Shown: positions 4,251 through 43,206 of the stretch, piece after piece
Layout: each line of letters begins with the position of its first letter
How positions within the stretch are numbered: the stretch's first letter is position 1
Origin: an uncultured Chitinophagales bacterium
GTDB taxonomy: Bacteria; Bacteroidota; Rhodothermia; Balneolales; CAYWCV01
Direction: 5' to 3'
DNA: 64,000 bases
NCBI GenBank assembly: GCA_964629885.1
Contig: CAZVRJ010000008.1
Span: forward strand, 4,524-68,523
Translations under genes and position numbers: made by a program
Notes under the pieces: generated by a model
Databases searched by the model: none
What the model was told of the DNA's origin: nothing
The model's input: the letters and a program-made list of their open reading frames with translations, nothing else

Positions 4251-4286
4251 GAACAAGAACAAGAACAAGAGCAAGAGCAAGAGCTG
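4251..4286. repeat. Hexanucleotide tandem array (GAACAA)3(GAGCAA)2GAGCTG
   Basis: Read directly. Six consecutive 6-nt units start 2 nt from the tRNA-Ser 5' end. Confidence 0.9.
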
Positions 4287-4353
4287 ATGCGAGGCCTTGT
4301 CATGTTTTTGTGCAGAAGGTAAAGATATCGCAAAATCGACTTGGGAGCAAGAG

Positions 4354-4920
4354 TCAAGACGAGTGATCGGGGTCGAGAACGTATATTTGTGCCAGATTTC
4401 GCCCTTCTTGGGCATAATCGAGCCCATATCCGAGAACAAACAGCGTCGGGATTTCAAATCCAACGTGGTCGATTTGAACATCATACCGGGTGGCGTCAGG
4501 CTTGTGCAGCAGGGTGATCACGCTAACCGACTCCGGTTTTTGATCTTTTATCTTTTTGAGCAGATAGTCCATCGAGAGACCCGTGTCGATGATATCTTCG
4601 ACCACGATAACATGCCTTCCTTTAATCGCTGCATCGAGCTCCTTGCGCTCTGTGACTTGGCCCGACGACACCTTCTCGTCCCCATAGCTACTCAATTTGT
4701 AGAAATCGACCTCGCATGTGATATGGACATGGCGCATCAAATCGGCTAGAAAGATGAACGACCCGTTCAAAATGCCGATCATGATAGGCTGTTTCCCGGC
4801 ATAGTCCCTATTGATGATGTCGCCCAATTCACTCAAACGGGCGTCAATCTGTTCCTTGCTAATAAACAGTTTGAAGCGTTCTCCGTTGCACAGCACATGG
4901 TCGGGTAAGTTCAAGGCCAT
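4354..4920 (-). CDS. hpt: Hypoxanthine phosphoribosyltransferase
   Basis: 188 aa with PRPP-binding motif VIVVEDIIDTGLS and C-terminal FVLGYGLDYAQEGRNL typical of Hpt. Sits in the conserved tilS-hpt gene pair. Confidence 0.9.
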   Translation of the reverse strand: MALNLPDHVLCNGERFKLFISKEQIDARLSELGDIINRDYAGKQPIMIGILNGSFIFLADLMRHVHITCEVDFYKLSSYGDEKVSSGQVTERKELDAAIKGRHVIVVEDIIDTGLSMDYLLKKIKDQKPESVSVITLLHKPDATRYDVQIDHVGFEIPTLFVLGYGLDYAQEGRNLAQIYVLDPDHSS

Positions 4921-4933
4921 CTGAAGGGACGAT

Positions 4934-6265
4934 TTAGTGATGAATCAAAAAATGGAAGCAATTACTCCCATCGCATGCATGCGATGGGTGAATGCGCCAC
5001 CGTGTCTCATATCCTGGGTGGCTAAATATAACTGCGACAACCGATCCATCCAAGGTCAGAACGTATGCTCGTGACTTGAGACGCCTCGGAACTCCCCATT
5101 CATTGAGGAGGTCGGACACCGATTTGGATCCACCGTCGATACGCAGTTTATCTCCCGTTTCAGGTGCCCTAAGTGTGTAGCTGCCCATATTTGAGCGCAT
5201 CGCAAATCCAAGCCCAATTTCGGGTTTAGATTGAATGGAAATGCTCCCGCAGTCAAACCGTACAAAATCCTCCTGCACATCGGCGGTGGTAAACCGAATG
5301 GTTGAGACATCATCGTGATGCTTTAAGTCGATCACTAGGTGCTCGTGGTCTCTGTGCCAGGCCACCAAATCGTCGAGTTCGACCATCTTTCCCGCCTGAC
5401 TGTCGATCAGCGACAACACCGCTTCAGGCATCGCTTGCCGTACAGGCAAGCCTTTGCGTTCATGGATGCGATGGATGATGGCGGTATTGAGTGGGAAATC
5501 TAGCGTCTGAAGCCACTCAACGGGGATTCTGGATGCATCTCCGAACGGCTTCAACAGTTGGTCGAGCGACATCTGGTAAATCTGCCCGAATTCACCGATT
5601 CTATCCACGTTCGACTTCCACCCAGGATAAAGTCGATCCATTTCCGGAATAAGGTCATTCCTTAGAAAATTTCGTGCGTATATGGATGTCTGATTGCTTT
5701 CGTCATCGCGCCAAACAACGCCATTTTCGTGTGCATACCCTTCGATTTCTGCTCTAGATGTGGCAACCAACGGTCGTATAAACGGATATTCGACCGCAGG
5801 CATGGCATTCCAGTTTGAAGGTGCCGCTCCACGGAGTACCCGCATGATGAGCGTTTCGTACACGTCATCAAGGTTATGACCCAAAAGGATAGCCTCCGAT
5901 CCTGTCTCGTGCATCAACCTATGGAACTGATCTCGTCGGAATTGGCGTGCGATATCCTGAAAGTTGCCGTTTCTATCGGAAGCCGGATCCCAATGCATCA
6001 CTTCACACTGCACACCAAGATGAGAACATGTTCTTTTGACGAGCTCCTCGTCTGCATTCGATGATTCGCCTCGTTTGTGGTAGTTCACATGCAACACATG
6101 AACTCGTAAACTACTTTTGCTCAGAAGATGCAAAAGTACCATGGAGTCGACACCCCCACTCACACCGACCACTACAGCGGAGTCGGGCAACAACTTGGCT
6201 TCGGAGAATAGGATCCTCCTAAAATCAGCTTGGATCAACATAGAGTCTGACTTGCTCATAGGCAT
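4934..6265 (-). CDS. tilS: tRNA(Ile)-lysidine synthetase
   Basis: PP-loop motif VGVSGGVDSMVLLHLL, about 440 aa, located upstream of hpt. The start is uncertain: 6265, 6259 or 6241 all overlap the end of birA. Confidence 0.85.
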   Translation of the reverse strand: MPMSKSDSMLIQADFRRILFSEAKLLPDSAVVVGVSGGVDSMVLLHLLSKSSLRVHVLHVNYHKRGESSNADEELVKRTCSHLGVQCEVMHWDPASDRNGNFQDIARQFRRDQFHRLMHETGSEAILLGHNLDDVYETLIMRVLRGAAPSNWNAMPAVEYPFIRPLVATSRAEIEGYAHENGVVWRDDESNQTSIYARNFLRNDLIPEMDRLYPGWKSNVDRIGEFGQIYQMSLDQLLKPFGDASRIPVEWLQTLDFPLNTAIIHRIHERKGLPVRQAMPEAVLSLIDSQAGKMVELDDLVAWHRDHEHLVIDLKHHDDVSTIRFTTADVQEDFVRFDCGSISIQSKPEIGLGFAMRSNMGSYTLRAPETGDKLRIDGGSKSVSDLLNEWGVPRRLKSRAYVLTLDGSVVAVIFSHPGYETRWRIHPSHACDGSNCFHFLIHH

Positions 6266-7016
6266 ACGTTTGCACGGAGTAATCGTCGTCCATTAGGTGT
6301 AAGTGGCCATTCACATTCACACCTAAAAGCAATCTGGGACCATCTAATTTGACGCCGTCGACATCCACCCCGACTTTCGTACCATATCCGATAAGTCTCT
6401 GATTGATCGCCTTGACCAAATTTGGATCCTTTTGCATCCAACTCTTATTCAAGATTTCAGTTTCGGTTACAATGCTCGCCAAGAGCTTTTCTCGGTCGAG
6501 TGGACGTCCCAATATCTGCGAAAGCGATGCGGCTTCAGGCAGGAATGACGGAAATGAGGACTGATTCACGTTCAGCCCAATCCCTACGATGAACCTGTCG
6601 AGATGGTTACCCATGAAAACAGCCTCGGCTAGTACTCCAGCAACCTTCTTCCCTTCGATGATGAGATCGTTGGGCCATTTGATCTTGGTCTTGAGCTGAA
6701 ATTCTCTTTCAATGACGTTTGCTACTGCGTGAATGCAGGAGAGTGTCAATATAAAGAGGCGATCTTGCGTCTCTGGACGCAGCAGGTAGCTCCAAGTGAG
6801 GTTTGAGCATGGCTCAGAAACCCAGCTTTTCTCATATTGCCCGCGCCCTTTTATTTGACGGTCGGTCAGACATATCAACCCATCGAGTGCCTCACCTGCT
6901 GCACCCGACTTAAGCCAGGTATTTGTTGATTCTAATTCCGGAAACACCACTATCTCCCGGCCAAAAGAGGTATTGCCCAGAAAAGTTAAATAGCGGGAGG
7001 GGTTGAAATCGTCCAT
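6225..7016 (-). CDS. birA: Biotin--[acetyl-CoA-carboxylase] ligase
   Basis: 263 aa with a GRGQ loop (QIKGRGQYEKSW) and the KWPNDL motif. There is no N-terminal HTH, so it is a group I ligase. Confidence 0.85.
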   Translation of the reverse strand: MDDFNPSRYLTFLGNTSFGREIVVFPELESTNTWLKSGAAGEALDGLICLTDRQIKGRGQYEKSWVSEPCSNLTWSYLLRPETQDRLFILTLSCIHAVANVIEREFQLKTKIKWPNDLIIEGKKVAGVLAEAVFMGNHLDRFIVGIGLNVNQSSFPSFLPEAASLSQILGRPLDREKLLASIVTETEILNKSWMQKDPNLVKAINQRLIGYGTKVGVDVDGVKLDGPRLLLGVNVNGHLHLMDDDYSVQTYAYEQVRLYVDPS

Positions 7017-7062
7017 AGGTCAAAATTAGGCTATTCAAGACAACATCCCATAGTCGCAAAAT

Positions 7063-7097
7063 AAAAAAAGCCCCGAACGAATGAATCGCCCGGGGCC
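7063..7097 (-). terminator. Rho-independent terminator after the CBM48 gene
   Basis: The minus strand reads GGCCCCGGGCGATTCATTCGTTCGGGGCTTTTTTT: a GC stem followed by a T-run. Confidence 0.7.
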
Positions 7098-7117
7098 TAA
7101 ACTGAAAAATAGTGCGA

Positions 7118-7414
7118 TCAGTCGACTTTTATGAGGGAATCTTCAGTTCCGAAATCATTCGCAACAAAACCGTCAGCCTGGTCGTCGTTTTCCCAGGTTT
7201 GTTCGTCGATGAAGTAGCGAAAACGGTACTCGCTGCCTGGAGTCATGCGTATTGTAGTGAGCCATTGGTCATTCTTCAGCTCAAGCTTGTTCGCATTGGT
7301 GTCCCAGTTGTTAAAATCGCCTGCGAGCGACACAGAATTTGTGGCTTTATCGGCCGGTAATGCAAAGGTCACTTTGCATACTGTGCGCTTAGGTGTGAAG
7401 TCTTTCGTAATCAT
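7118..7414 (-). CDS. CBM48 / AMPK-beta glycogen-binding-like (early set) domain protein
   Basis: 98 aa. VSLAGDFNNWD...YRFRYFIDEQTWENDDQAD matches the isoamylase N-terminal/AMPK1_CBM pattern. Confidence 0.7.
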   Translation of the reverse strand: MITKDFTPKRTVCKVTFALPADKATNSVSLAGDFNNWDTNANKLELKNDQWLTTIRMTPGSEYRFRYFIDEQTWENDDQADGFVANDFGTEDSLIKVD

Positions 7415-7693
7415 TATAATGCCTGAATGTGTTGTTGATTGAAACAGGTAGCAGTTAGCACACTAGCCTTGGTCAAATATAAGGAAATTTTATTTTTTAA
7501 TAAATAAACGTAATGACCTTTAATATTAAATTAATTTTTGCTTAATACTGAAATATTTTAATATATAAAGCGCTTCCATAAACTTTTCTTCACTATACAA
7601 GGGTTCGACTACCTTAATTAATTTAGCATCACACATATCTGACTATTAATAACTTATGCCCCATTCTAGCACAAACAGCAACAAATAGTATCG

Positions 7694-9439
7694 TCAAATA
7701 CCTTTTGGTGCCAATTCTGATTGCCATTGTTCCGAAATGCGTTCTCTTGCTTCCCTAGTGCTTGCCGACAGCATATCGGACAGCAAGCCTTCAAAGTCGC
7801 TCATCTTGAAGCGTCTAATTACCCTACGGATGTTAGGGATTGACCTCATCGACATACTGAGCTCCGTAACCCCCATGCCGATAAGGCAAGCTGCTGCAAC
7901 GGGCTGCGAAGCCATCTCGCCGCAAACGGAAACCGGAATTCCCGCTTCTGAACCAGCATCTACAATCCAGCGGATGGCCTGAAGTACCGATGGGTGCACG
8001 CTTTCGTACAGGTCTGAAACGAGTGGATTGCCACGGTCGACAGCCAACACATACTGTGTGAGGTCGTTGGTGCCAATGCTAAAAAAATCGGCGTGTTTTG
8101 CAAGGGTGCGGGCGGCAATCGCAGCTGAGGGCACTTCAATCATCATGCCGATTCGAATGCCTCTGTCGTACCTAAGGTTTTGTCGGTCGAAATGTTCCAT
8201 GCGTTCATCGAGAATTCGCCGAAAAACGAGCCATTCGTCGAGCACACTCACCATCGGAAGCATCAGCCGCAATCTGCCTGGGAACTCGGCCGAAACTTGC
8301 AGCATAGCATCAAGTTGAGACTCAAGAATCGATGGTCGGTCGAGCAATAAACGCGCTCCCCTCCATCCGAGATGGGGATTAGATTCACCCGAATCCCTAT
8401 CAGTGAGCTTATCGCCGCCGATGTCGAGTAAGCGGAATGTGACACCACTAGAGCCAGACACAGTTGCCATAGCTTTATAGTATTCCATCTGCGATTGAAC
8501 CAATGCCGATGCCCCGATGGCCATCAACATAGACTCCGTCCTCACCAACCCAATACCCTGCGGCTTAAAGGTCTCCATCAACTCCAACTCAGACTCAAAT
8601 TCCACATTCGCCCTCACATGAATGGGTTTTCCACACACTGTGGATGCGGGCAACAAATCGGCTTCTGTAATCTTGCCTGCCATTTCCAAATGGGAGGCTT
8701 GTTTCTTGAGCTTGGCAACCAGCTTGGTCGAGGGCTTGAGGTAAAGCTTACGATTGTCGGCGTCGATAAGAATCGGGTCGCCGGTTAAAACATGCTTCGT
8801 GAGCTCTTTCACGCCTGCCACGAATGGTATGTTCATCGATGATGCGATGATGGTGACATGCGAGGTTGCCCCACCCTTAGCGGTAGCTGCACCTTGGATG
8901 TACGGCGCGTACTCGAGTAGCTCGGTCGGCGAAATTTCATTAGCAATGAGGATGTTGCCACCAAAGTCTACAGGTGAAGAAACAAAATGCAGATGTCGGT
9001 AGATGCGGTCGCGCAGATCGCGAAGGTCGGCCGTACGCTCCATCATATAGGCGCTGCCAGTCTCCTCTATTCGGCTTATATAGTGCCGGAACACAATTTC
9101 TATCGCATGTTCGGCGGTCTTCGACTCATCCGAAATAGCCCTGTGCAGCTCATTGTTCAACTCTGGATCGTTTAATATTTCGAGCTGGGTATGAATGATG
9201 TTCTTGACATCACTACCTCCGAGTCGCTGTGCTGTAATCAGTAGTGCGGAGAGCTCAGCCGTTGCCTTCTCCTTACTTTGATTGAATCGGATGAGCTCGG
9301 CCTGCGGGTCTTCGCAATACATGCGACCCGAGGCGGTACTTGGGATATCCTCGCCTAATACAAGGGCCGTCCCGATCACAATGCCGCCGGTACCGGCCTT
9401 CCCCTCGAGTATTGCAGGAATTATGGGTGAGCTGTGCAT
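7694..9439 (-). CDS. ptsI: Phosphoenolpyruvate-protein phosphotransferase (PTS Enzyme I)
   Basis: 581 aa with active-site His context GGATSHVTIIASSMNIPFV and C-terminal PEP-utilising motifs FFSIGTNDLTQY and CGEMA. Confidence 0.9.
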   Translation of the reverse strand: MHSSPIIPAILEGKAGTGGIVIGTALVLGEDIPSTASGRMYCEDPQAELIRFNQSKEKATAELSALLITAQRLGGSDVKNIIHTQLEILNDPELNNELHRAISDESKTAEHAIEIVFRHYISRIEETGSAYMMERTADLRDLRDRIYRHLHFVSSPVDFGGNILIANEISPTELLEYAPYIQGAATAKGGATSHVTIIASSMNIPFVAGVKELTKHVLTGDPILIDADNRKLYLKPSTKLVAKLKKQASHLEMAGKITEADLLPASTVCGKPIHVRANVEFESELELMETFKPQGIGLVRTESMLMAIGASALVQSQMEYYKAMATVSGSSGVTFRLLDIGGDKLTDRDSGESNPHLGWRGARLLLDRPSILESQLDAMLQVSAEFPGRLRLMLPMVSVLDEWLVFRRILDERMEHFDRQNLRYDRGIRIGMMIEVPSAAIAARTLAKHADFFSIGTNDLTQYVLAVDRGNPLVSDLYESVHPSVLQAIRWIVDAGSEAGIPVSVCGEMASQPVAAACLIGMGVTELSMSMRSIPNIRRVIRRFKMSDFEGLLSDMLSASTREARERISEQWQSELAPKGI

Positions 9440-9451
9440 GGCTCAGTAAGC

Positions 9452-9718
9452 TCAGACGTCATTGAAACCCAGGCTGAAAAGATCCATGATGGCATTACAT
9501 GCGTCGTTTTCATCTGGACCGTTAAACTCCAGCTCAAGTTCGGCTCCTTGTTCGGCCGCAAGCGTCATTACTCCCAAAATGCTCTTACCATTAACTTTAT
9601 AGCCGTACATGTGTATGAAGAAGTCCGATTTGAACTTTGATGCCAGCTGCACCAACTGAGCCGCAGGCCTGGCGTGGAGCCCGGCAGGATTATGCACTAC
9701 TGCGGTTTTTCGGATCAT
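9452..9718 (-). CDS. ptsH: Phosphocarrier protein HPr
   Basis: 88 aa. His15 is in GLHARPA and Ser46 is in NGKSILGVM. Confidence 0.9.
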   Translation of the reverse strand: MIRKTAVVHNPAGLHARPAAQLVQLASKFKSDFFIHMYGYKVNGKSILGVMTLAAEQGAELELEFNGPDENDACNAIMDLFSLGFNDV

Positions 9719-9894
9719 TCGCGTGGAATTATACTAATATTCTGTGCTGTTATTTCATAAGTAAAATAGCGTACATCTGATTCAAATCAAGAGAGTAGAC
9801 ATTCATTTTTGTAACCATTTTGTTGCTGCCCGGATAAAAGCCCGGATTTTGTTAACTTTGACGTTCTGTAAGCACTAACACAATTCTATTTTTT

Positions 9895-10182
9895 ATGTCG
9901 GTCACAAAAGAAGATGTGGCGTACATCGCCAACCTTGCTCGCCTCCAACCCGATGAGGCCCAGACAGAAACCTTGATGCGCGACATGAATCGCATCTTAA
10001 GCTACATGGAGCAGCTCAATAAAGTCGACACATCCGAAGTGGCGCCGCTCGACCACGTCATTGAAATTCCTCCCGATTATCGTAAAGATGTCGCACTTCC
10101 ACCTCTCGACCACGACAAGGCACTGTCGAATGCACCCGATGCCGACAGCGACTACTTCCGTGTACCAAAGGTAATCGAGTAA
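9895..10182 (+). CDS. gatC: Asp-tRNA(Asn)/Glu-tRNA(Gln) amidotransferase subunit C
   Basis: 95 aa with the typical GatC N-terminus (EDVAYIANLARLQPDEAQ...L.YMEQLNKVDTSEV). Confidence 0.9.
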   Translation: MSVTKEDVAYIANLARLQPDEAQTETLMRDMNRILSYMEQLNKVDTSEVAPLDHVIEIPPDYRKDVALPPLDHDKALSNAPDADSDYFRVPKVIE

Positions 10183-10187
10183 TACGT

Positions 10188-12713
10188 ATGTCAAGAGCAA
10201 GAACAAGTGCAAGTGCCAGAGCAACTGCAAGTGGAACTGTAGGCAACTCGGCCGAGAAACGACCCCTTTTTGATCCCTGGGAAAATATCCCCGATGTGGC
10301 CAAACACGCAGTCTGCTTGGTTGTGCTGATATTGCTTCCGACATTCTTGTTTCCTGATGTTTTTTGGGGAGACAGCCGGTTTGTCGCCCACGACACCATA
10401 CAGTGGCGCGCTTCTGCCGAATCCATTATTGCCGAGCGCAATGCAACTGGCGAAGAGCCCCTATGGGCTGCCAATCAGTTTTCGGGTATGCCCGCTTACT
10501 TGGTGTCCTACAAGAAAAGCGTGCCCAACATCGACAACATCTTGACAATACCCGAGACGCTCTACCCTGCCAGCTTCTTTTGGATACTGATTATCGGGAT
10601 GTACCTCTTTTTGATAAGGCTGGGATTTAGGCCGGCCTCATCGTTGCTTGGTGCAATTCTAGCTGGCTTTTCTACGTATTTACCCATCATTGTTGGAGCG
10701 GGGCACAACTCGAAGTTTGTGGCTCTCAGCTTTATCCCCTGGGTTATGCTTGGATATGCCATGTTGCGCGACCAGGATCGCAACAAATGGCTGGCCGCAT
10801 TTGTGTTTACCGGGGCTTTCATTCTGCAACTCAGGGCAGGACATCCACAGATCACCTATTATTTTATGTGGCTTTTGGGGATCTGGTTCCTTTACGATGC
10901 TTTCAAAGCTTGGAAGGATGGAAACCTGAAGCCATTTGCCGGCGTGGCTATGCTCGTCGTTTTGTCTGGTGTTGTTACCTTGATCGCCAACGCCCAGCCC
11001 TATTGGAGCATCTACGAATATTCGCCCTTCAGCATCCGCGGCGGCGGTGGGGCTGACTCGCCCGGCGGCGCAGGCCTCGATATGGAGTACGCATTCAGAT
11101 GGTCGCAAGGTTGGGGCGAATTGATCACCTTGTTGATTCCGAATGCCTTTGGTGGATCGGCCGCCTACTGGGGGCCCAAATCTGGCACGAGTGGGCCACA
11201 CTACTACGGCGCCATCACCATGGTCTTTTTGTTAATCGGGCTATGGAAATCCGATTTCAAGCTCAAGTGGGTATTCTTTGGCGCCGGAGCCATCACCATG
11301 TTGTTCTCTTTGGGTGAGAATTTCATGGCCTTGAACACCTTCATGTTCAACTACTTCCCACTTTTCAACAAGTTCCGAGCCCCTGAAACCTGGCTTGTGG
11401 TCGCAGGATTCTGCTTCCCTGTTGTGGCCGTTGCAGGTATTGAGTACTTGGCGAAAAAATCTGGGGAGTTAAAGAAGTCAGACTGGTTACCAGCGATGAT
11501 TCCGGTCGCAGTAATTGCCATTGTGGCTGCTTTGGGAAGTGGAACCGTGCTCTCATTCGAAAAGCCAGGTCAGGCAGAACAGTTTATTGAACAACTTGCT
11601 TCAGCCAACCAACTGAGCCCAAGCGACCCCAGAGTACAGCAGCAGGTGAACGATTTTATTGAGACGAATCTCAAACCTGAACGCAAAGCCCTTGCGGAGA
11701 GAGATGGTTTACGGTTTTTGATTATCGTGACCCTTTCGATTGCCGTGTTGATAGGCTTGGCTTTCAGAAAGCTTAGTGCGGGTCCAGCAACATTGATCCT
11801 CGTGCTCATTGCCGGATATGATGTACTCACAGTGGGCCAGCGTTACGCCAACGAAAACAGCATGGCGCCAAAAGATTTTGATGCCCAGCGAACTATTGAG
11901 CAGACACGACGTCCACTCGACACCTGGCTGGCCGAAAATGTTAAAACTGCCGAGCCCTGGTCTTACCGCGTTTTCCCATTGAGCGATAACCCATTCAATA
12001 ACGCACTGCCTTCCTATTTTTATCCATCGTTGGGTGGTTATAGCGGTGCACGCATGGCCATGTACGACGACATTATGTCGCGATCGATTTTCGTCGGCGA
12101 TTTTGGTCTGAACATTGGGCTGATGAATATGCTCAACACCAAATACATCACCTATGGGGCCGAGCTGGAGCTACCGGGTTTTGATCCAGTGCATGAAGTT
12201 GATGGAGTTGTAGTTTACGAAAACACATACGTACTCCCTAAAGCGTGGTTTGTGGATCGAGCAGACGTAGTGTTGAGTAAAGAGAACGCATTGGCACGCA
12301 TCAATCAGTTTACATTCGATCCATCGCGTGAAGCGGTTGTCGAATATGATCGCCTTCTGCCAAACCTTACTGCCGATAGTACCGCCAGTGCAACCGTGAC
12401 CTCGTACTCTGCTCGGCAGATCGACGTACAAGTAAGCCGCACCTCAGGAAGCGGATTGTTGGTGTTGGGTGAACTTTACTACCCAAGAGGCTGGACCGCC
12501 ACTGTCGACGGCGAACCAACCGAAATCTTAAAGACCAATTTTGCGATTCGTGGTGTGGTAGTTCCAGAGGGATCTCATATGGTATCGTTCACATTTGAGC
12601 CAAGTTCGCATTCATCAGGTACGACAATTGCCTGGGTTGGCCACCTTGCTTGGCTGCTGATGGGCGGCATTGCCCTCATGTTCCACCTGCGGAATCCCCG
12701 CAAGCCCGAGTGA
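10188..12713 (+). CDS. YfhO-family polytopic membrane protein (putative glycan/lipid-linked glycosyltransferase)
   Basis: 841 aa with many TM helices across the N-terminal approximately 550 aa and a soluble C-terminal domain plus a final TM, as in YfhO. The start is uncertain: ATG 10188 includes the repeat, while GTG 10296 (MAKHAVCLVVLILL) would leave the repeat intergenic. Confidence 0.75.
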   Translation: MSRARTSASARATASGTVGNSAEKRPLFDPWENIPDVAKHAVCLVVLILLPTFLFPDVFWGDSRFVAHDTIQWRASAESIIAERNATGEEPLWAANQFSGMPAYLVSYKKSVPNIDNILTIPETLYPASFFWILIIGMYLFLIRLGFRPASSLLGAILAGFSTYLPIIVGAGHNSKFVALSFIPWVMLGYAMLRDQDRNKWLAAFVFTGAFILQLRAGHPQITYYFMWLLGIWFLYDAFKAWKDGNLKPFAGVAMLVVLSGVVTLIANAQPYWSIYEYSPFSIRGGGGADSPGGAGLDMEYAFRWSQGWGELITLLIPNAFGGSAAYWGPKSGTSGPHYYGAITMVFLLIGLWKSDFKLKWVFFGAGAITMLFSLGENFMALNTFMFNYFPLFNKFRAPETWLVVAGFCFPVVAVAGIEYLAKKSGELKKSDWLPAMIPVAVIAIVAALGSGTVLSFEKPGQAEQFIEQLASANQLSPSDPRVQQQVNDFIETNLKPERKALAERDGLRFLIIVTLSIAVLIGLAFRKLSAGPATLILVLIAGYDVLTVGQRYANENSMAPKDFDAQRTIEQTRRPLDTWLAENVKTAEPWSYRVFPLSDNPFNNALPSYFYPSLGGYSGARMAMYDDIMSRSIFVGDFGLNIGLMNMLNTKYITYGAELELPGFDPVHEVDGVVVYENTYVLPKAWFVDRADVVLSKENALARINQFTFDPSREAVVEYDRLLPNLTADSTASATVTSYSARQIDVQVSRTSGSGLLVLGELYYPRGWTATVDGEPTEILKTNFAIRGVVVPEGSHMVSFTFEPSSHSSGTTIAWVGHLAWLLMGGIALMFHLRNPRKPE
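10192..10239. repeat. Hexanucleotide tandem array (CAAGAG CAAGAA CAAGTG CAAGTG CCAGAG CAACTG CAAGTG GAACTG)
   Basis: Read directly. Eight units start 4 nt after ATG 10188. In the YfhO ORF frame they translate as RARTSASARATASGT. Confidence 0.9.
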
Positions 12714-12730
12714 CTGGCACTCGCCCGGCT

Positions 12731-15067: not shown

Positions 15068-15068
15068 A

Positions 15069-15785: not shown

Positions 15786-15854
15786 GGACAACAAGATACG
15801 GTGCTCGGTCGTATATTACCCTTCATTTGAATCATCCATAATGGAAACGACGTT

Positions 15855-19230: not shown

Positions 19231-19235
19231 GCCAT

Positions 19236-20289: not shown

Positions 20290-21549
20290 ATGGCACAGTT
20301 TACGACACACACAGGGATGGTCGACATCCTTCCCGGCGAATCGGAGAAATGGCAATATCTCGAGGGATTAGTACGCGAGGTGGCCCGTAGGTTTCATTTC
20401 AGGGAGATTCGTACGCCGATCATGGAACCCACCGAAATGATCGCACGGGGTGTGGGGCAACTCACCGACATTGTCTCGAAAGAGATGTTTGCGTTCGATC
20501 GTGGCGACGACCATTACGTGCTGCGTCCAGAAGGAACGGCATCTGTTTGCCGCGCGTACATCCAACATCGATTAGATCAACGTGGCGGTGCGCAGCGTCT
20601 GTTTTACATCGGACCCATGTTCAGGGCTGAGCGTCCACAGAAAGGGCGCCAACGTCAGTTCCATCAGTTTGGAGCCGAAATTCTTGGGAGTGCCGATCCC
20701 TTGGCCGATGCCGAGGTAATCGCCTTCATGGCGGAAGTGTACCGACTTGCCGGCATTGCGAACACGACACTTCGCATCAATTCGGTGGGCGACCCTGAGA
20801 GCCGCCAATCGTACAGAGAGGCGCTGATCGCATATTTCAAGCCATTTGAAGCGCAATTGAGCGAGGTATCGCGCACAAGATTGCAGAACAATCCGATGCG
20901 TATCCTCGACTCGAAGGAACCCGAAGATCAGGCATTGGTATCAGATGCGCCCAGCATCATCGATTATTTGAATCAGGATTGCTTGGACCACTACGGCAAG
21001 GTGAAGCAGCACCTCGAGTCGCTGGGAATATCGTACGTGGAGGACCACCGACTCGTTCGTGGACTCGATTACTATACAAAAACGGCATTCGAGCTAACGA
21101 GTCCAGACCTTGGGTCTCAAGATGCCTTGGGTGGCGGCGGCAGGTACGATTTGCTGGTCGAGGAGCTTGGTGGTCAGCCAACCCCGGCGGTGGGGTTTGC
21201 CTCGGGCATGGAGCGGTTCATGATAGCCTGTGAGGCGTTGGAAATCGGGTTGGGAAGCGAACCAAAGGCGGATGTCTACATTGCTTGCCACGGTGAGAAA
21301 GCCCGTTTTTGGGCGGTTACGAAAGCCCAGGAGCTGCGAAATGCCGGTATCAGTACTTTGTACGATACCAGCGGTCGTTCGGTGAAAGCTCAGATGAAAG
21401 AGGCCAACCGTGAAGGGGCAAAATGGACCATCGTCGTGGGCGAAAGCGAGCTCGAGAAGGGAGAATTTGTCCTCCGCAACATGCAAGCCAGCGAAGAGCA
21501 ATCCTTGCCATTTTCTAGCATTAAGTCAATAGTCGTCCCCTCAACTTAA
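20290..21549 (+). CDS. hisS: Histidine--tRNA ligase
   Basis: Class II aaRS motifs (YIGPMFRAERPQKGRQRQFHQFGAE; GGGRYD). ATG 20290 is preferred over GTG 20248. Confidence 0.9.
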   Translation: MAQFTTHTGMVDILPGESEKWQYLEGLVREVARRFHFREIRTPIMEPTEMIARGVGQLTDIVSKEMFAFDRGDDHYVLRPEGTASVCRAYIQHRLDQRGGAQRLFYIGPMFRAERPQKGRQRQFHQFGAEILGSADPLADAEVIAFMAEVYRLAGIANTTLRINSVGDPESRQSYREALIAYFKPFEAQLSEVSRTRLQNNPMRILDSKEPEDQALVSDAPSIIDYLNQDCLDHYGKVKQHLESLGISYVEDHRLVRGLDYYTKTAFELTSPDLGSQDALGGGGRYDLLVEELGGQPTPAVGFASGMERFMIACEALEIGLGSEPKADVYIACHGEKARFWAVTKAQELRNAGISTLYDTSGRSVKAQMKEANREGAKWTIVVGESELEKGEFVLRNMQASEEQSLPFSSIKSIVVPST

Positions 21550-21552: not shown

Positions 21553-21615
21553 CTCTTACTCCTGCTCTTGTTCCTGTTCCTGTTCCTATCCTTCTTCTTT
21601 CTTCTTTCTTCTTTC
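21553..21615. repeat. Polypyrimidine repeat tract: hexamers (CTCTTA CTCCTG CTCTTG TTCCTG TTCCTG TTCCTA TCCTTC) then (CTTCTTT)3
   Basis: Read directly. Only 6 purines occur in 63 nt. The hexamers are the complement orientation of the CAAGAG/CAGGAA units. Confidence 0.9.
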
Positions 21616-21651
21616 AAAAAAGCCCCGAGAGGATTCCCCCGGGGCTTTTTT
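21616..21651. terminator. Bidirectional rho-independent terminator between hisS and the TonB receptor
   Basis: AAAAAAGCCCCG-AGAGGATTCCC-CGGGGCTTTTTT: a GC stem flanked by an A-run and a T-run. Confidence 0.8.
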
Positions 21652-38600: not shown

Positions 38601-40672
38601 AAGAAGGCGTGGCTGAGGTGTCGGCCGTTGAAGATGCACGCAACTATTTGAATACGAAAATCAGCTCTGGCGAACTCGTGTTGCCCGATGGAGTTCGTTA
38701 TGTTTTCTCAGGCAGCTACGAAAACCAAGTAAGGGCTGAGAAGCGGCTTGCGTTCGTCATACCGTTATGTTTGATCTTGATTGTACTGATCCTCTATTTC
38801 CAGTTTAGGTCGGTCGGAACCGCCATGATGATTTTCACGGCCATTGCAATGGCGTTCTCGGGAGGTTTCATCATGGTGTGGCTATATGCCCAGCCATGGT
38901 TCCTTGATTTCAACATATTCGGCACGGAGATGAGGACTTTGTTCCAGATATCGCCCGTCAACTTGAGTGTTGCCGTTTGGGTTGGATTCATCGCCCTTTT
39001 CGGCATTGCCACCGACGATGGTGTGGTGATGGCTACCTACCTTGACCAGACTTTTGCTTCAAGGGTCACAAATACCACAGAGGAAATACGCGCTGCTGTA
39101 CTAGAGGCCGGGCTTAAGCGAATTCGTCCATGTCTTATGACCACTGCCACCACTCTGTTAGCTCTGCTTCCAGTACTTACATCGAGTGGACGCGGTGCCG
39201 ATATTATGATCCCGATGGCGATTCCTGCATTCGGGGGGATGACCGTCGCATTGATCACGCTTTTTGTGGTGCCTGTTCTGTACAGCTGGAAAGCGGAGAG
39301 AACAGCAGGTGCAACTGCAAGATCAGGAGCAACTGCAAGAGCAGGAGCAGGAACGGCATCGATAGGCGAAAAAGATGGTGAAACTAAGGGCGGTGGCAAA
39401 CCACCATTCTTGTCGTTGCTCTTGTTCTTGCCGTTGCTCTTGTTCTTGCTCTCGCCATTGTTCTTGTTCTCGAATCAAGCTAGTGCACAATCACTGCCGT
39501 CATCTCTATGGCAGAAGGCGGTTGAGAATAACCCTCGACTGGAGATATACCGTCAGAATCTTGTATCCCAAGAGGCTCTGAAACGGTCGGTGGGAGCTTG
39601 GCCCAATCTTGAGATCGAGGCCGGCGTGTTAGTCCGCCCGATGGAACTGATGATGGGCGATCAAAGGTTCAGCTTTTCCGTGATGCAGATGCTGCCACGG
39701 ACGGCTGAATTTAAGTACCAACGCGAGGAGATCGATGCCATGTCGGGCGCTGAGCAGGCACTGCTCGATGAGACCTTGCGAATGATTCGCCGCGAGTTGA
39801 CCGAAGCTTGGATCGAACGCGTCGCACTCGAACATGAGATGAACCTCATGGATGATGCCCTCGAGATAATGAACCAGATGCAGTCGGCTGTCCGCGACCG
39901 GGTTTCCACAACAGCAAGCAATTCCGATTGGATTCGTATCGAGATGCGCATCCTCGAAATGGAAGATGTTCACGCTGCCATGGAAGACAAGATCGAAGCG
40001 CTGAACCAGAAGATATGGAGCCTCACAGGCGACAAGCAGCGATCATCCATCCCAATTGCCGATAGTCTTTCGATAGCCAGCTATCGCTTTGCAAGGCAAG
40101 TGCCTGATTTCAGCGACCATCCTGCCGTTCGCATGTTCGATTTCGAGGCCAATGCTGCGATAGCGCGTGCAAGGATGACGGAATCGATGCTGCGCCCGAT
40201 GTTTGGGATTGGCGTACAGTACACTCCTATCAAACCGAGGGAGTCTATGGGTGAGCGAACAAGTGGTGGCGATATGATTATGCCAATGTTCACCTTAAGC
40301 GTGCCGACATCTCGCGATAAGGTAAGAGCGCTATCGGAGGCATCGCGATCAGAGTCGCTCAGTATCCAGCGGGCTAAAGAAGACAAAATAGCTGAGCTTC
40401 AAATTCAGTGGGCCAAAGCCATATCAGAGCTCCAGCAAGCCGAGCGCAACCTCATCACAGCCAGTCGACAAAGAGCATTGTCGAAGGAATTGTACGATAA
40501 CGAGCTTGTTCAATTCCAAACCGGAATGGGTAACCTCGACATGCTGCTCGACATCCAAGAGAGTTGGGTCGGGTATCGCATGAAATCGCTCGAAGCAACC
40601 ATGCGTCAGCGAATGGCCTTCGCCATGCTAGAAGAACTTCAACCTTCCATTACAGGGAGCACAAACCAATGA
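35675..40672 (+). CDS. CusA/CzcA-family heavy-metal RND efflux pump, continuous in frame with a TolC-like outer-membrane factor (1665-aa ORF)
   Basis: The first approximately 1205 aa have RND topology (12 TM helices, two large periplasmic loops, HME-type sequence). No stop codon occurs before the OMF-like C-terminal approximately 395 aa. The junction is made of hexamer repeats. Confidence 0.8.
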   Translation: MLQSIIRFFLDQKLVTVLFAGLLIAWGLSTAPFKWDVPFLPSDPVPVDAIPDIGENQQIVYTEWMGRSPQDVEDQITYPLTSTLLGLPGVKSIRSTSMFGFSSIYVIFEDNVDYYWSRTRILEKINALPADLLPTSVQPRLGPDATALGQVYWYTLEVLDQDGNLVQGVWDLHELRSIQDFQVKPALNATPGVSEVASVGGYVMEYQVDLDPSSLRLYNISVMDVMNAIRASNQDVGANTLEINQVEYLVRGLGYIRSVADLEESVITERNNVPIRIADVGRVNIGPAPRGERGILDRDGVEVTGGVVVARYGDNPMQVIEALKERIALLEPGLPQRTLEDGRTVKVSIVPFYDRSVLIRETLGTLNDAISLQILITIIVILVMVRNLRASIMISVILPIAVLMTFILMRYFSVDANIVALSGIAIAIGTLVDLGIILSENVLRHKDEASEGEPLRDIIYRASVEVAPAILTAVSTTIVSFLPVFTLQAAEGKLFTPLAWTKTFALVAAVVITLTMLPALAHALLGMRIKRGESGAKSQAGPIERYGLWLAVVVVSIFLTAAWLPLGVQVGLLVNLLFVALILAIVLGGFYLFLKYYPTLLAWCLENKLKFLSIPAVIILFGAMIWLGFPRVFGFVAKAGDSVGMNVRVTAPWSFMAHSFPGLGKEFMPSLDEGAFLLMPTVMPHAGVEISREYLSRLDRLVTAIPEVETVVGKAGRAESALDPAPLSMFENVILYKPEFKTDADGRKLRFKIDDEGNFVTDDRGELIPDNRGQYYRQWRDHIRTPDDIWQEIVTATTLPGITSAPKLQPIETRLVMLQTGMRAPMGIKVYGPDLETIEAFSIELEAQLKEVPSLKEASVFAERSVGKPYLEIKLDRPAMARYGIMVAEVQEVIEVAVGGMPLTTTVEGRERYNIRARFARDFRDSPESLEGILIPTMMGSQIPLGQIAEITYRRGPMMIRGEDTFLTGYVLFDRQEGVAEVSAVEDARNYLNTKISSGELVLPDGVRYVFSGSYENQVRAEKRLAFVIPLCLILIVLILYFQFRSVGTAMMIFTAIAMAFSGGFIMVWLYAQPWFLDFNIFGTEMRTLFQISPVNLSVAVWVGFIALFGIATDDGVVMATYLDQTFASRVTNTTEEIRAAVLEAGLKRIRPCLMTTATTLLALLPVLTSSGRGADIMIPMAIPAFGGMTVALITLFVVPVLYSWKAERTAGATARSGATARAGAGTASIGEKDGETKGGGKPPFLSLLLFLPLLLFLLSPLFLFSNQASAQSLPSSLWQKAVENNPRLEIYRQNLVSQEALKRSVGAWPNLEIEAGVLVRPMELMMGDQRFSFSVMQMLPRTAEFKYQREEIDAMSGAEQALLDETLRMIRRELTEAWIERVALEHEMNLMDDALEIMNQMQSAVRDRVSTTASNSDWIRIEMRILEMEDVHAAMEDKIEALNQKIWSLTGDKQRSSIPIADSLSIASYRFARQVPDFSDHPAVRMFDFEANAAIARARMTESMLRPMFGIGVQYTPIKPRESMGERTSGGDMIMPMFTLSVPTSRDKVRALSEASRSESLSIQRAKEDKIAELQIQWAKAISELQQAERNLITASRQRALSKELYDNELVQFQTGMGNLDMLLDIQESWVGYRMKSLEATMRQRMAFAMLEELQPSITGSTNQ
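39305..39352. repeat. Hexamer array, purine-rich orientation (GCAGGT GCAACT GCAAGA TCAGGA GCAACT GCAAGA GCAGGA GCAGGA), with 18-nt super-period
   Basis: Read directly. It translates as AGATARSGATARAGAG in the long ORF. Confidence 0.9.
39407..39472. repeat. Hexamer array, complementary orientation (11 x NNCTTG: TTCTTG TCGTTG CTCTTG TTCTTG CCGTTG CTCTTG TTCTTG CTCTCG CCATTG TTCTTG TTCTCG)
   Basis: Read directly. It translates as FLSLLLFLPLLLFLLSPLFLFS. An 18-nt unit (TCGTTGCTCTTGTTCTTG) is repeated with one mismatch. Confidence 0.9.
39410..40672 (+). CDS. TolC-family outer-membrane efflux factor module (possible separate gene with TTG start inside the repeat)
   Basis: After the hydrophobic stretch and an ASA-Q cleavage-like site, the sequence QSLPSSLWQKAVENNPRLE... 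resembles the N-terminus of mature OMFs. The approximately 395-aa size fits TolC-like proteins. No ATG or GTG is available in frame, so the start is speculative. Confidence 0.45.
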   Translation: MSLLLFLPLLLFLLSPLFLFSNQASAQSLPSSLWQKAVENNPRLEIYRQNLVSQEALKRSVGAWPNLEIEAGVLVRPMELMMGDQRFSFSVMQMLPRTAEFKYQREEIDAMSGAEQALLDETLRMIRRELTEAWIERVALEHEMNLMDDALEIMNQMQSAVRDRVSTTASNSDWIRIEMRILEMEDVHAAMEDKIEALNQKIWSLTGDKQRSSIPIADSLSIASYRFARQVPDFSDHPAVRMFDFEANAAIARARMTESMLRPMFGIGVQYTPIKPRESMGERTSGGDMIMPMFTLSVPTSRDKVRALSEASRSESLSIQRAKEDKIAELQIQWAKAISELQQAERNLITASRQRALSKELYDNELVQFQTGMGNLDMLLDIQESWVGYRMKSLEATMRQRMAFAMLEELQPSITGSTNQ

Positions 40673-42402
40673 GAACCGAAACATCATCATTTAGCCTACA
40701 GAACAAGAATTGGAGAAAGTGGGCAGTTTACGCAGGAATCCTGATACTTGGATTGATTGGCGGACGCCTGATATGGGGTGGTGGCGACCCTCACGCCGGT
40801 CACGACCATGCTACGACCGAAGATGGAGAGATTATTTGGACTTGCTCGATGCACCCACAAATTCGCGAAGATGGTCCGGGAAAATGCCCCCTTTGTGGCA
40901 TGGATCTGACCCCGCTGAGCGCATCGGGTGGATCTGGAGCCGATGCAGGTATCATACGGTTATCGGCTAACGAGCTCAATTTGGCAGGAGTTAGGACTAC
41001 CAGGGTCGGCGGTGCGTCGTCCGACGGAACCATCATGCTAACCGGTCGAATAACCCCCGACGAACGACTTCGTGCGGTGCTTACTGCCCACATTGGCGGA
41101 CGCATCGAAAACTTGATGGTTGACTTCACGGGCAGCAGGGTCTATGCCGGCCAGATATTGGCCGAAATCTATTCGCCGGAGCTCCTTAATGCTCAACAGG
41201 AACTGCGTCAGATGTACCAGTTCCGCGAGCAGCAACCATCCCTTTACAAGGCCACCCGCGATAAAATCGCCCTTTGGAAGTTCTCTGAGAGTGAAATCGA
41301 CGCGATGGCCACCTCAGCTGAAATCAAGGCCGTAGTGCCGGTAAGGGCAGAGCGCAGTGGTGTGGTTACGGCGCTAAATGCCAGGAAAGGTATGTACGTA
41401 GAACGCGGCGAAATGCTCATGGAAATCGACGACCTTAGCTCCGTCTGGGTGATATTAGATGCCTTTGAGCAGGACCTATCTCGCGTGAGGATTGGGCAAA
41501 CTATGGAAATCGTGGCTGATGCCCACCCGGGAGACACATTCAAAGCATCGGTGAGGTTCATCGATCCTATGCTGAATCCAGAAACCCGCACCGTGGCGAT
41601 CCGTGCTGAGCTCAATAACCCAGGAAACAAACTGAAACCCGACATGCTGGTACGGGCACGTCTTCAGCAAGGCGGGAATCGAAGCGAAGTGCTAACCATT
41701 CCAGCCACAGCAGTGCTGTGGACTGGGAACCGTTCGGTGGTTTACGTTAAAGAACCGGGAAGTGACCACGACGGTAGTGGATTTCGAATGGTGGATGTTA
41801 CCCTGGGTCCAAGAACCGGAAACTCCTACGAAATAAAAAAGGGTCTCTCATCTGGCGATGAGGTCGTAACTCATGCGGCTTTCACCATCGACTCGGCCGC
41901 TCAGCTCATGGGAATGGAGAGCATGATGAGCCAGCGCATCCAACGTGCCGCCGAAGATGAGGCTCTTCAGAAGTCCATCGTGCAGGCCGTGAAGCCTTAC
42001 TTAGATCTGAAGGACGCCTTGGTTGCATCCGACAACGGCTTGGCTGCCACCAAAGCCCGTGAAGTTGTGACGGCTTGGGAACGTTTCACCACCAATCCAC
42101 AAAATGAAGATGAATTGGAGATGTGGAGTACCATGAAATCGTCGGTGCTGAACGGTGCTCGCAGTACAGCCAGCTCGACGGATCTGGAAAAGCGCCGAGC
42201 TGATTTTGAAATCCTAAGTGATGCGCTCATTGCTCTCATCGACAGGTATGGAATTTCTGGCACCACGCTTTACAAGCAGTATTGTCCAATGGCCTTTGAC
42301 GATAAAGGATCCTATTGGATCAGTACCGAACGCCAGATTCGCAATCCGTACTTTGGGTCCATGATGTTGTCATGCGGAGAAGTGCGTGGAACTTGGGAAT
42401 AG
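40669..42402 (+). CDS. Efflux RND periplasmic adaptor (CusB/CzcB-like MFP) with N-terminal Cys4 metal-binding domain and C-terminal DUF3347-like region
   Basis: The ATG 40669 overlaps the upstream stop (ATGA). TM anchor, CSMHPQIREDGPGKCPLCGMDL motif, HlyD-like barrel-sandwich region, and a C-terminal helical region (VKPYLDLKDALVASD). Confidence 0.85.
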   Translation: MRTETSSFSLQNKNWRKWAVYAGILILGLIGGRLIWGGGDPHAGHDHATTEDGEIIWTCSMHPQIREDGPGKCPLCGMDLTPLSASGGSGADAGIIRLSANELNLAGVRTTRVGGASSDGTIMLTGRITPDERLRAVLTAHIGGRIENLMVDFTGSRVYAGQILAEIYSPELLNAQQELRQMYQFREQQPSLYKATRDKIALWKFSESEIDAMATSAEIKAVVPVRAERSGVVTALNARKGMYVERGEMLMEIDDLSSVWVILDAFEQDLSRVRIGQTMEIVADAHPGDTFKASVRFIDPMLNPETRTVAIRAELNNPGNKLKPDMLVRARLQQGGNRSEVLTIPATAVLWTGNRSVVYVKEPGSDHDGSGFRMVDVTLGPRTGNSYEIKKGLSSGDEVVTHAAFTIDSAAQLMGMESMMSQRIQRAAEDEALQKSIVQAVKPYLDLKDALVASDNGLAATKAREVVTAWERFTTNPQNEDELEMWSTMKSSVLNGARSTASSTDLEKRRADFEILSDALIALIDRYGISGTTLYKQYCPMAFDDKGSYWISTERQIRNPYFGSMMLSCGEVRGTWE

Positions 42403-42424
42403 AACTGTCGAGCCATTTTAACTA

Positions 42425-43087
42425 TTAGGTGCAGTGATTGACCTGAAAGGGTGTCACCACTTTATGCTTGTGGTTGCTCATTCTATGAACGTATAAAGAT
42501 ATCAAGCTGGCAATCGCCACGGCATAAAGTGTCCACAGATAAACGTTGAGTAATAAGCCCTCTGACCAATCAGGCCCAGTAAGATGGGTGTGGATTGCTG
42601 CCAACGTGATCCAGATGATGGATGTTCTGTGAATCCACCTCCATAGAGTTGGAACGCCATGAATAATGGTTGCCGACATGGTGATTGCCAATCCATAAAA
42701 TCCGTAGATGCCGATGTTCACTTCCCATCGGCGGTGAAACGGTAAAAGGGACATGAATGCGCGGTAGAGGTCGTCTGGCAAAAATCTAGCTGTCAATAGC
42801 AGTGCATGCGCTAATGCCAAGAAGACCACTACAAGCCCAAGCTGGTGGTGCAGGCAAAGTCTCTGACCTTTGGTACCGATCATCTTGTCGATCGGCTTCC
42901 AAGATGCCAAAAGGATCACCGAAATCACAAAAAGCGACATCGACAAATATCCGGTCAGATTTGATAAGGTTGTCCATGGTTCGACGGCGTGTCGGCTGGG
43001 TTCGCTGGTAGCCAGTAGCCGTAATGGTATCACAACGAGTGCGATTGCCCAAACAAGGGCGGTGCGCGAAAGCGCAGGAGATTTCAT
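42425..43087 (-). CDS. Ferric-reductase-like transmembrane domain protein (MsrQ/YedZ-like heme-binding membrane protein)
   Basis: 220 aa with about 6 TM helices and conserved-looking His residues inside TM helices (LHHQLGLVVVFLALAH; IHGV; AAIHTH). Confidence 0.55.
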   Translation of the reverse strand: MKSPALSRTALVWAIALVVIPLRLLATSEPSRHAVEPWTTLSNLTGYLSMSLFVISVILLASWKPIDKMIGTKGQRLCLHHQLGLVVVFLALAHALLLTARFLPDDLYRAFMSLLPFHRRWEVNIGIYGFYGLAITMSATIIHGVPTLWRWIHRTSIIWITLAAIHTHLTGPDWSEGLLLNVYLWTLYAVAIASLISLYVHRMSNHKHKVVTPFQVNHCT

Positions 43088-43134
43088 GTAGCCTCCAGTA
43101 AATGTTGTTCCTCCTTAGACGCGTAACTCCCCTA

Positions 43135-43206
43135 CTTGTTCTTGTTCTCGCTCTTGTTCTTGCTCTTGCTCTTGTTCTTGTTCTCGCTCTCGCTCTCGTC
43201 TCGTCT
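43135..43206. repeat. Hexamer array (CTTGTT CTTGTT CTCGCT CTTGTT CTTGCT CTTGCT CTTGTT CTTGTT CTCGCT CTCGCT CTCGTC TCGTCT)
   Basis: Read directly. About 12 units lie in the divergent intergenic region between 43087 (-) and 43320 (+). Confidence 0.9.

Follow-up and report, generated by a model that had tools for sequence, protein, structure and literature searches.

Tandem arrays of 6- and 7-nt units at gene boundaries in an uncultured relative of the Balneolales

Array blocks and their genes

The stretch of DNA analysed here (the window; 64,000 nt of contig CAZVRJ010000008.1, assembly GCA_964629885.1, from an uncultured bacterium) carries short tandem arrays at a tRNA-Ser gene, at the start of a YfhO-like gene, behind hisS, in front of a glyoxalase gene, across the junction of the efflux genes czcA and czcC, and in front of a DPP IV gene. 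A preceding interpretation made from the letters of the window (the sequence-only reading) had listed seven such blocks, and Tandem Repeats Finder (TRF) combined with direct reading of the sequence recovers all seven where they had been placed. We number six of them in window order as arrays 1–6 and call the seventh, which lies between arrays 3 and 4, the heptamer block. TRF finds periods of 6 and 7 nt with 4.4–11 copies, set head to tail without spacers. A 5-nt core, TCTYG (CRAGA on the other strand), is common to nearly all of the hexamers and heptamers, and one or two variable bases come after it. The window contains six in-phase runs of three or more units with at most one mismatch to CAAGA, as compared to a mean of 0.64 and a maximum of 3 in 100 dinucleotide-preserving shuffles, and shuffled sequence is practically free of TRF arrays of period 5–8. 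With a gene model that combines open reading frames (ORFs), Pfam hits, and the gene calls of related contigs, intergenic DNA and DNA no more than 90 nt from a gene end make up 21.6% of the window, and all seven loci (7/7) fall there (p ~2e-5). This enrichment within the window, together with the shared core, bears out the proposal that the blocks form one related family sited at gene boundaries in both orientations; their orientation relative to transcription is mixed.

The common units are free of stop codons in all six frames, so that an array entering an ORF is translated as a low-complexity peptide. We rejected stop-freedom as the reason for the choice of unit: about half of all hexamers are by our estimate stop-free on both strands, and one of the units, (GATAACT)n, does contain stops. 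Background k-mer abundance as the source of the units is ruled out by 6-mer ranks in the window, where CTCTTG stands at 627 of 2080 and GTCTCG at 1816, neither being over-represented. The rare variant GCAACTGCAAG is common to arrays 2 and 4, which are 29 kb apart, and hints at ectopic exchange or a common bias. The array sites show no shared flanks, no terminal inverted repeats outside the arrays, and no target duplications. A scan for sigma-70 promoters and terminators returned nothing over shuffles near the arrays, in a lineage that may use other promoter types. When metagenome contigs were scanned for TCTTGYTCTTGYTCTTGYTCTTG, at least 120 loci were retrieved with GC contents from 18% to 71%, none of those retrieved being akin to the window beyond the repeat itself, a result with no bearing on distribution within this lineage.

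The DPP IV-like protein beside array 6 is 92% identical to those of two metagenome-assembled genomes (MAGs) carrying the NCBI label ‘uncultured Chitinophagales’; its identity to that of a third is 85%. Because its next-best matches are Balneolaceae (Balneola, Gracilimonas, and Rhodohalobacter, at 60–65% identity), the source is, on this one protein, an uncultured bacterium of the Fibrobacterota–Chlorobiota–Bacteroidota (FCB) group nearest to the Balneolales, in keeping with the FCB-group host suggested earlier. The data comprise ∼64 kb of the window genome and orthologous stretches from relatives, which we cite by locus handle. The window's species was found on contigs of three Joint Genome Institute (JGI) metagenomes at 97.5–99.4% nucleotide identity, with arrays in all. 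The JGI assemblies compared are L192, L193, L194, and L209, and the NCBI MAGs are L195 and L196, the latter at ∼91% protein identity to the window; L046 is the 85% relative. Arrays recur in all of these JGI and NCBI assemblies with the same or changed copy numbers, so the absence from independent assemblies that the sequence-only reading had raised is not what we find.

About 36 window ORFs were scanned against Pfam and ∼11 more were covered by gene calls that already existed for related contigs. Domains of a transposase, an integrase, or a reverse transcriptase were not found in the ORFs so checked (four small ORFs at 60.3–63.7 kb were unscanned), which agrees with the earlier remark that no transposase lies nearby, and the Pfam scans of window ORFs yielded no cas domains. 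In the Rfam search of the window, tRNA alone was matched. For HisS, the glyoxalase, the ferric-reductase-like protein, and P0121, a look-up of the exact protein returned no match.

Array 1 (4250–4285, minus strand) reads (GAACAA)3(GAGCAA)3 on the plus strand and YTCTTG on the strand of the tRNA-Ser(GCT) gene (4158–4248, minus strand), beginning 1–2 nt upstream of the mature 5′ end of that tRNA, and consists of 5.5–6 units with 96% matches. Between near-identical flanks its unit count is 6 for the window, 9 for L192, and 11 for L194, a difference between strains of the sort that had been anticipated, and the array is the sole sizeable indel across a 20-kb alignment at 97.5% identity. A proto-array of 2–3 units, GGGAGCAAGAGTCAAGACGAG (4343–4365, minus strand), spans the stop codon of the phosphoribosyltransferase gene (4354–4920, minus strand; Pfam Pribosyltran) and is unchanged in L192 and L194. 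A histidine-kinase ORF (2010–4484, minus strand) reads through tRNA-Ser and array 1, as does the JGI gene call on L192. Two paralogous histidine kinases containing TPR repeats (2010–4100 and 30890–32872) adjoin array 1 and the heptamer block, respectively.

Array 2 (10192–10239, plus strand) is degenerate (CAAGAG, CAAGAA, CAAGTG, CAAGTG, CCAGAG, CAACTG, CAAGTG, GAACTG; 75% matches). It directly follows the ATG at 10188 of a YfhO-like ORF, 5 nt past the gatC stop, and codes for SRARTSASARATASGT. Because four of five YfhO-like homologues start ∼30 residues further in, array 2 would either encode a Ser/Arg/Ala/Thr N-terminal extension or, if GTG 10296 is the true start, form part of the 5′ untranslated region (UTR). 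It shows no difference among four assemblies; pure array 1 varies and degenerate array 2 is constant, which is the usual behaviour of repeat tracts, unstable when pure and stable when interrupted. A search with the YfhO-like N-terminus found no close relatives (best 43% identity), and array 2 is therefore untraceable between species.

Array 3 (21553–21615, plus strand) comprises seven YTCYTG hexamers (CTCTTG/TTCCTG; 21553–21591) and then (TTCTTCT)3.4 (21592–21615). It opens 3 nt past the hisS stop (21547–21549) and closes at a bidirectional intrinsic terminator (21616–21651). The L196 orthologue has an equal number of hexamers, four of them substituted, and one heptamer more. The heptamer block (32933–33048, plus strand) consists of (ACGAGAC)11 at 32933–33009 followed by (GATAACT)4.4 at 33012–33048, and stops 4 nt short of the ATG at 33053 of a glyoxalase/VOC gene. 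At the same site L196 has (CGAGACG)3 plus (CCTAGTC/CCTGATC)6, L195 is array-free, and the species of L199 and L200 has only a 35-nt spacer. The deposited glyoxalase call P0122 (259 aa, versus 155 aa) was probably extended through the heptamer block. Between array 3 and this block lies a MutS-family paralogue (28233–30044; 603 aa) with domains III and V only and without the mismatch-binding domain, whose called length among relatives ranges from 417 to 603 aa.

The czcA/czcC junction and the DPP IV site

Array 4 (39305–39352, plus strand; GCAGGT, GCAACT, GCAAGA, TCAGGA, GCAACT, GCAAGA, GCAGGA, GCAGGA) by itself codes for AGATARSGATARAGAG, the C-terminal tail (Ala/Arg/Gly/Thr) of a CzcA/CusA-type resistance–nodulation–division (RND) pump. 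Array 5 (39407–39472, plus strand; TTCTTG, TCGTTG, CTCTTG, TTCTTG, CCGTTG, CTCTTG, and so on) is inverted relative to array 4 and by itself codes for FLSLLLFLPLLLFLLSPLFLFS, the hydrophobic core of a predicted CzcC signal peptide, which continues into NQASA|Q. The two arrays join czcA and czcC into one ORF of 1665 aa (35675–40672, plus strand) with Pfam domains ACR_tran and then OEP, an RND pump–outer membrane factor fusion. The genes share one ORF also in L209, L195, and L199–L204, and are separate in L046, L190, L191, and L196/L197. At the two-gene junction of L190, L191, and L196, CzcA ends in FNEGDL at its stop codon and CzcC begins MILMNSIGK...KGKP; the CzcA tail array in these three ranges from almost none (L190) to ∼8 units. 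In L046 czcA terminates after YSWVAERRLRKGANA. Near relatives of CzcC (79–93% overall identity, for a query that also took in the CzcA C-terminus) have Leu/Phe/Pro low-complexity cores of differing length, and the remoter ones (P0008 at 59%, and the separate gene of L046) have ordinary signal peptides.

In a visual alignment at the protein level, the centre of the window junction, SIGEKDGETKGGGKPP, lines up with the N-terminal region of stand-alone CzcC, and for this reason we infer that loss of the sequence from the tail array up to that N-terminal region best explains the fusion. The product may be one fused polypeptide or an internally started CzcC, both of which are compatible with the ORF; L209 and L200 have an in-frame ATG exactly where the array-coded core begins, and array 5 itself contains in-frame TTG codons. 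CusA–OEP fusions elsewhere in Bacteroidota, e.g. in Saprospiraceae (P0011–P0024), are ∼30% identical and unrelated.

The junction is also a site of rapid allelic change. L209, with flanks 99.4% identical on both sides, has GCGAGAC/GCGAGAA heptamers around another centre, 79 nt as compared to 115 nt in the window. The sequence-only reading had held that the 6-nt unit keeps length changes in frame within ORFs; as an explanation this is not supported, since a conspecific strain and a sister species have 7-nt alleles at this very site inside the ORF. Between L199 and L200, which belong to a second species and are 96.8% identical overall, the junction differs by indels of 15 and 6 nt and by many substitutions.

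Arrays 4 and 5 are inverted relative to each other on either side of a 55-nt centre, with a predicted hairpin of −83 kcal/mol in the window (z = −6.4). The hairpin predicted for L196 (−94 kcal/mol, z = −4.5) encloses the czcA stop and the czcC start, and those of L209 (z = −2.8) and L190 (z = −1.8) are weak. Across a cross-genome matrix of duplex energies between junction arms, the mean is −55.8 kcal/mol within genomes versus −53.2 between them. Selection for the hairpin is not supported, because duplex energy has no within-genome excess that would point to co-variation past the complementarity of the family. Inverted hexamer arrays are also present in two unrelated GC-rich (62–66%) metagenome contigs (L142, 1474–1597 and 3514–3876; L143, 4879–4962), with a layout, (CTCTTG)n(ATCTTA)n-loop-(TAAGAT)n(CAAGAG)n, that matches the architecture of arrays 4 and 5; these are predicted to form intergenic hairpins, in L143 right after a stop codon. 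L142 additionally has inverted heptamer arrays, GAAATCC/GGATTTC, 240 nt apart.

Array 6 (43135–43209, plus strand; ∼12 units of CTTGTT/CTTGCT/CTCGCT) occupies the divergent spacer between a ferric-reductase-like gene on its left (42425–43087, minus strand) and a DPP IV/S9 peptidase gene on its right (43320–45716, plus strand), and adjoins the conserved block CTTGCTAAATATTGTAAAA. At this site L039 has 14 hexamers, and L195, L190, and L196 have heptamers (NTCTCGN). On the evidence of these alleles, periods 6 and 7 interconvert at one site, and ‘hexanucleotide’, the term by which the family had been defined, has to be given up as a defining property. The species of L199 and L200 has no array here, only the seed CCGTTCTTGCTAAAG, equal to 1.5 unit copies, beside the conserved block; L046 likewise has no array, only GCTTGCT. 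More distant relatives are array-free, and their DPP IV site shows a 1.5-copy seed, GTTCTTGCT, by the conserved block. Because the 1.5-copy seed is seen at array-free orthologous sites, the alignment of these sites establishes that the array arose in place from a short native seed.

Two non-coding blocks lie 3′ of array 6 (43203–43275), namely CTTGCTAAATATTGTAAAA..CAAGCA and a perfect 8-bp palindrome, GTGATCAC (43264–43271). Both are conserved in L195, L196, L190, L039, and L199, L046 keeps the first, and the two probably serve the DPP IV gene as promoter or operator.

More broadly, L196 has arrays at all five orthologous sites, with units, copy number, and period unlike those of the window, and arrays with other units, copy numbers, and period also occur at covered orthologous sites in L195, L190, L191, and L039. 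Unit number is polymorphic between close strains within conserved flanks, as in simple-sequence repeats (SSRs) and variable-number tandem repeats (VNTRs). The density of arrays of period 5–8 is 14.6 per 100 kb in the clade, as compared to 3.9 in Balneolaceae (∼790 kb) and 3.2 in outgroup loci (∼400 kb), a comparison that upholds the density described as unusual and that is partly biased, because several clade loci were retrieved through array-bearing genes. In loci of Balneola and Gracilimonas, heptamer arrays are repeatedly seen close to the DPP IV gene; the density of 3.9 in Balneolaceae being no different from the outgroup value, we rejected a Balneolaceae-wide heptamer phenomenon.

Two further loci have repeats of their own. 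On a Balneola sp. chromosome (OZ260081.1; L032, 8700–9290), a ∼258 nt unit stands in three tandem copies upstream of a small gene, each copy containing a degenerate heptamer array (ATTATTC/CTTGTTC/AATATTC) and GC-rich hairpins; its heptamer unit (TTCATTA and rotations) lies near the DPP IV gene in seven Balneola/Gracilimonas loci. A metagenome contig of 36% GC (L175, 5048–11966) has 26 different hexamer or pentamer tandem arrays in ∼7 kb.

Origin and role of the arrays

We consider it probable that the arrays are lineage-specific hypermutable SSRs (microsatellites or VNTRs) that change by slipped-strand mispairing, are tolerated at gene boundaries, and are mostly neutral and occasionally co-opted. 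They are a known kind of element in an unusual form rather than a new genetic system. The sequence-only reading had suggested an undescribed kind of element, and a literature search for tandem repeats of Balneolaceae did find no description of such repeats; that suggestion gives way to the ordinary SSR/VNTR behaviour of the arrays and to their analogues, the Haemophilus hmw repeats, the cyanobacterial short tandemly repeated repetitive (STRR) sequences, and the CTCTT repeats of opa.

Slipped-strand mispairing at replication, together with recombination inside arrays and from one array to another, would lengthen, shorten, and remodel them, as is suggested by the whole-unit changes, the purity-dependent stability, the conserved flanks, the ancestral seed, and the lack of mobile-element features. 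Loops of 6–7 nt are expected to evade MutS-dependent mismatch repair; in Haemophilus influenzae, dinucleotide tracts become unstable when mutS is lost and tetranucleotide tracts when polI is lost (summarised in PMC12721329). The expansion in place of a short native seed, seen at the DPP IV site, may have started other arrays too. Arrays would then persist only where selection tolerates added sequence, i.e. in spacers, UTRs, a tRNA leader, and protein termini or linkers, and the confinement to boundaries would be the pattern left by purifying selection. In the homologue comparison, arrays at coding sites coincide with non-conserved termini. Stop-free units could spread a short way into ORFs and be translated: YTCTTG, read as Leu/Phe/Pro, would now provide the hydrophobic core of the predicted CzcC signal peptide, GCAAGA-type units the CzcA tail, and array 2 the residues by which the YfhO-like protein may be extended at its N-terminus. 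Most of the arrays are probably carried along neutrally, and what they do to UTR length, RNA hairpins, gene fusion, and ORF calling would be incidental.

Several observations weigh against a neutral microsatellite family. Independent neutral slippage leaves the presence of one 5-nt core at 6–7 unlinked sites unaccounted for, and this core is kept in both 6-nt and 7-nt versions, yet the hexamers are not over-represented elsewhere in the window. Array 3 has as many hexamers in L196 as in the window. Species of ∼90% protein identity have kept arrays at the same sites, which could indicate selection. Finally, the density comparison carries the retrieval bias noted above, and our view extends to ∼64 kb and its orthologous stretches rather than to whole-genome behaviour.

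Selection enters most directly if the arrays are contingency or ‘rheostat’ loci, in which repeat number in 5′ UTRs, promoters, and intercistronic regions would tune expression or mRNA processing. By analogy, a pyrimidine-rich heptamer in a 5′ UTR does so at hmw (PMC12721329), and STRR repeats form hairpins (PMC2670836). Four of the arrays lie immediately upstream of a start codon or of the tRNA 5′ end, same-site persistence across species is consistent with such a role, and the long predicted hairpin spans the czcA/czcC junction with strong scores in both the window and L196; however, that hairpin is weak in L209 and L190, and its arms lack within-genome co-variation. Whole-hexamer changes cannot shift frame, and graded effects would be compatible with the UTR and promoter positions. 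It is nonetheless hard to argue for one regulatory or binding function, because the flanked genes (tRNA-Ser, YfhO-like, the 3′ end of hisS, glyoxalase, czcAC, and DPP IV) have no common theme and orientation to transcription is mixed, with one array in a 3′ UTR. Sister species have no arrays at two of the sites, and a free-living environmental lineage has no evident need for the phase variation of host-associated bacteria. We regard tuning by repeat number as a tentative, rather unlikely explanation.

The constancy of the core could alternatively reflect a dedicated trans-acting factor, be it a hexamer-binding protein, a ring-shaped RNA-binding protein, or a nicking or repeat-generating activity. 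Fur binds arrays of GATAAT, and TRAP and HutP are ring-shaped RNA-binding proteins that read NAG repeats. Such a factor would make sense of a core conserved across unlinked sites, lineages, and the 6/7-nt change of period while the rest of the unit turns over, of a unit choice not explained by background k-mer frequency, and of the rare GCAACTGCAAG in both of two distant arrays. Yet no candidate factor was identified, the spread over both orientations, 3′ UTRs, and coding regions fits one binding function poorly, a spacing of 6–7 bp is short for tandem binding to double-stranded DNA, and a 1-nt indel that then spread through an array could convert hexamers to heptamers and keep the core with no factor at all; we think this explanation improbable. 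An equally doubtful idea is that, rather than being passive microsatellites, the arrays result from a process peculiar to this lineage and directed by sequence, such as a factor by which repeats with the TCTYG/CRAGA core are recognised, seeded, or homogenised at gene boundaries. If true, the arrays would be dispersed elements of a new class in Balneolota, regulatory or structural, and the process would also be a source of new protein termini, signal peptides, and fused genes.

Descent from a mobile element, as remnants or termini of a miniature inverted-repeat transposable element (MITE) or insertion sequence (IS), or from integrated foreign DNA, is suggested by the dispersal of the family in both orientations, by the inverted pair that arrays 4 and 5 form around their centre, and by the tRNA gene next to array 1. 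That centre, however, aligns with the native N-terminal region of stand-alone CzcC, the DPP IV array has its in-place seed, array lengths differ at every site, orthologous sites keep their flanks and vary in content, and conserved flanks, terminal inverted repeats outside the arrays, target-site duplications, and, in the ORFs checked, transposase and integrase domains are all missing. This origin is largely refuted and very improbable. An assembly or sequencing artefact would be a natural suspicion for repeats, which misassemble easily, in a metagenomic source; it is refuted, because all independent contigs of the window's species carry arrays. No fewer than six independent assemblies, drawn from different samples and produced by different pipelines (JGI, NCBI MAGs, and Logan), contain these arrays, with consistent flanks and biologically structured differences.

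Read as a microsatellite family, the arrays document a dense, hypervariable 6/7-nt repeat in a free-living FCB-group lineage. They also give a concrete case of repeats making new protein termini and fusions: where an ordinary signal peptide would have its core there is an array-coded stretch, and two efflux genes are connected through arrays into one ORF, so that microsatellite sequence has been taken up into coding sequence. In practical terms, the arrays are usable as VNTR strain-typing markers for this lineage in metagenomes, and stop-free arrays mislead gene callers and inflate ORF calls.

Comparison with known repeat systems

CRISPR arrays have repeats of 23–55 nt split by unique spacers, a leader, and cas genes; the window arrays have spacer-free units of 6–7 nt, and cas domains are absent from the Pfam scans. 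Repetitive extragenic palindromic (REP) sequences and bacterial interspersed mosaic elements (BIMEs) are imperfect palindromes of 20–40 nt, often with a REP-associated tyrosine (RAYT) transposase in the genome, whereas the units here are non-palindromic, only arrays 4 and 5 are inverted, and no Y1 transposase occurs in the ORFs checked. Copies of MITEs and ISs have a defined length, terminal inverted repeats, and target-site duplications, unlike these arrays with their variable lengths, unshared flanks, and in-place seed at an orthologous site. The earlier exclusion of CRISPR and REP/BIME is upheld, and MITE is excluded as well. With generic bacterial VNTRs the arrays share short tandem units, whole-unit indels, pure-tract instability, and depletion from gene interiors; they differ in density (∼14 per 100 kb versus 3–4) and in having one unit core at many unlinked sites.

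Upstream of H. influenzae hmw1A and hmw2A, (ATCTTTC)n is part of the transcribed 5′ UTR and base-pairs with a purine-rich arm in a long hairpin, for which RNase III cleavage and control of expression have been demonstrated (PMC12721329). The likeness lies in pyrimidine-rich tandem units of 6–7 nt just upstream of a gene, with strain-variable repeat number, and in the predicted ability of arrays 4 and 5 to pair into a hairpin. In contrast to the two paralogous hmw loci, the window has at least six unrelated loci, some in 3′ UTRs or ORFs; most of its arrays have no visible hairpin partner, and they are known from sequence alone. The (CTCTT)n of Neisseria opa lies in the signal-peptide coding region, codes for the hydrophobic core, and varies by slipped-strand mispairing (PMC3745409), and the CT-rich array 5, (YTCTTG)n, similarly codes for the core of the predicted CzcC signal peptide. 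The opa unit shifts frame, switching on or off, because it is 5 nt long, whereas whole-hexamer changes in array 5 would alter only the length and composition of the core; the CzcC signal-peptide array has 6-nt units, and all alleles seen are in frame.

The STRR heptamers of cyanobacteria are tandem and dispersed, and form hairpins, e.g. between hupS and hupL (PMC2670836). Like them, the window arrays are lineage-specific, dispersed tandem units, including 7-nt ones, in intergenic or intercistronic positions and capable of forming hairpins, and the conservation of their unit core across sites parallels the long-open question of STRR function. They differ in phylum and units, in switching period between 6 and 7 nt, in entering coding sequence, and in their documented strain-level variation in copy number. 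STRR sequences are the closest match to the overall pattern, and the window arrays appear to be an analogue of that family rather than a member of it.

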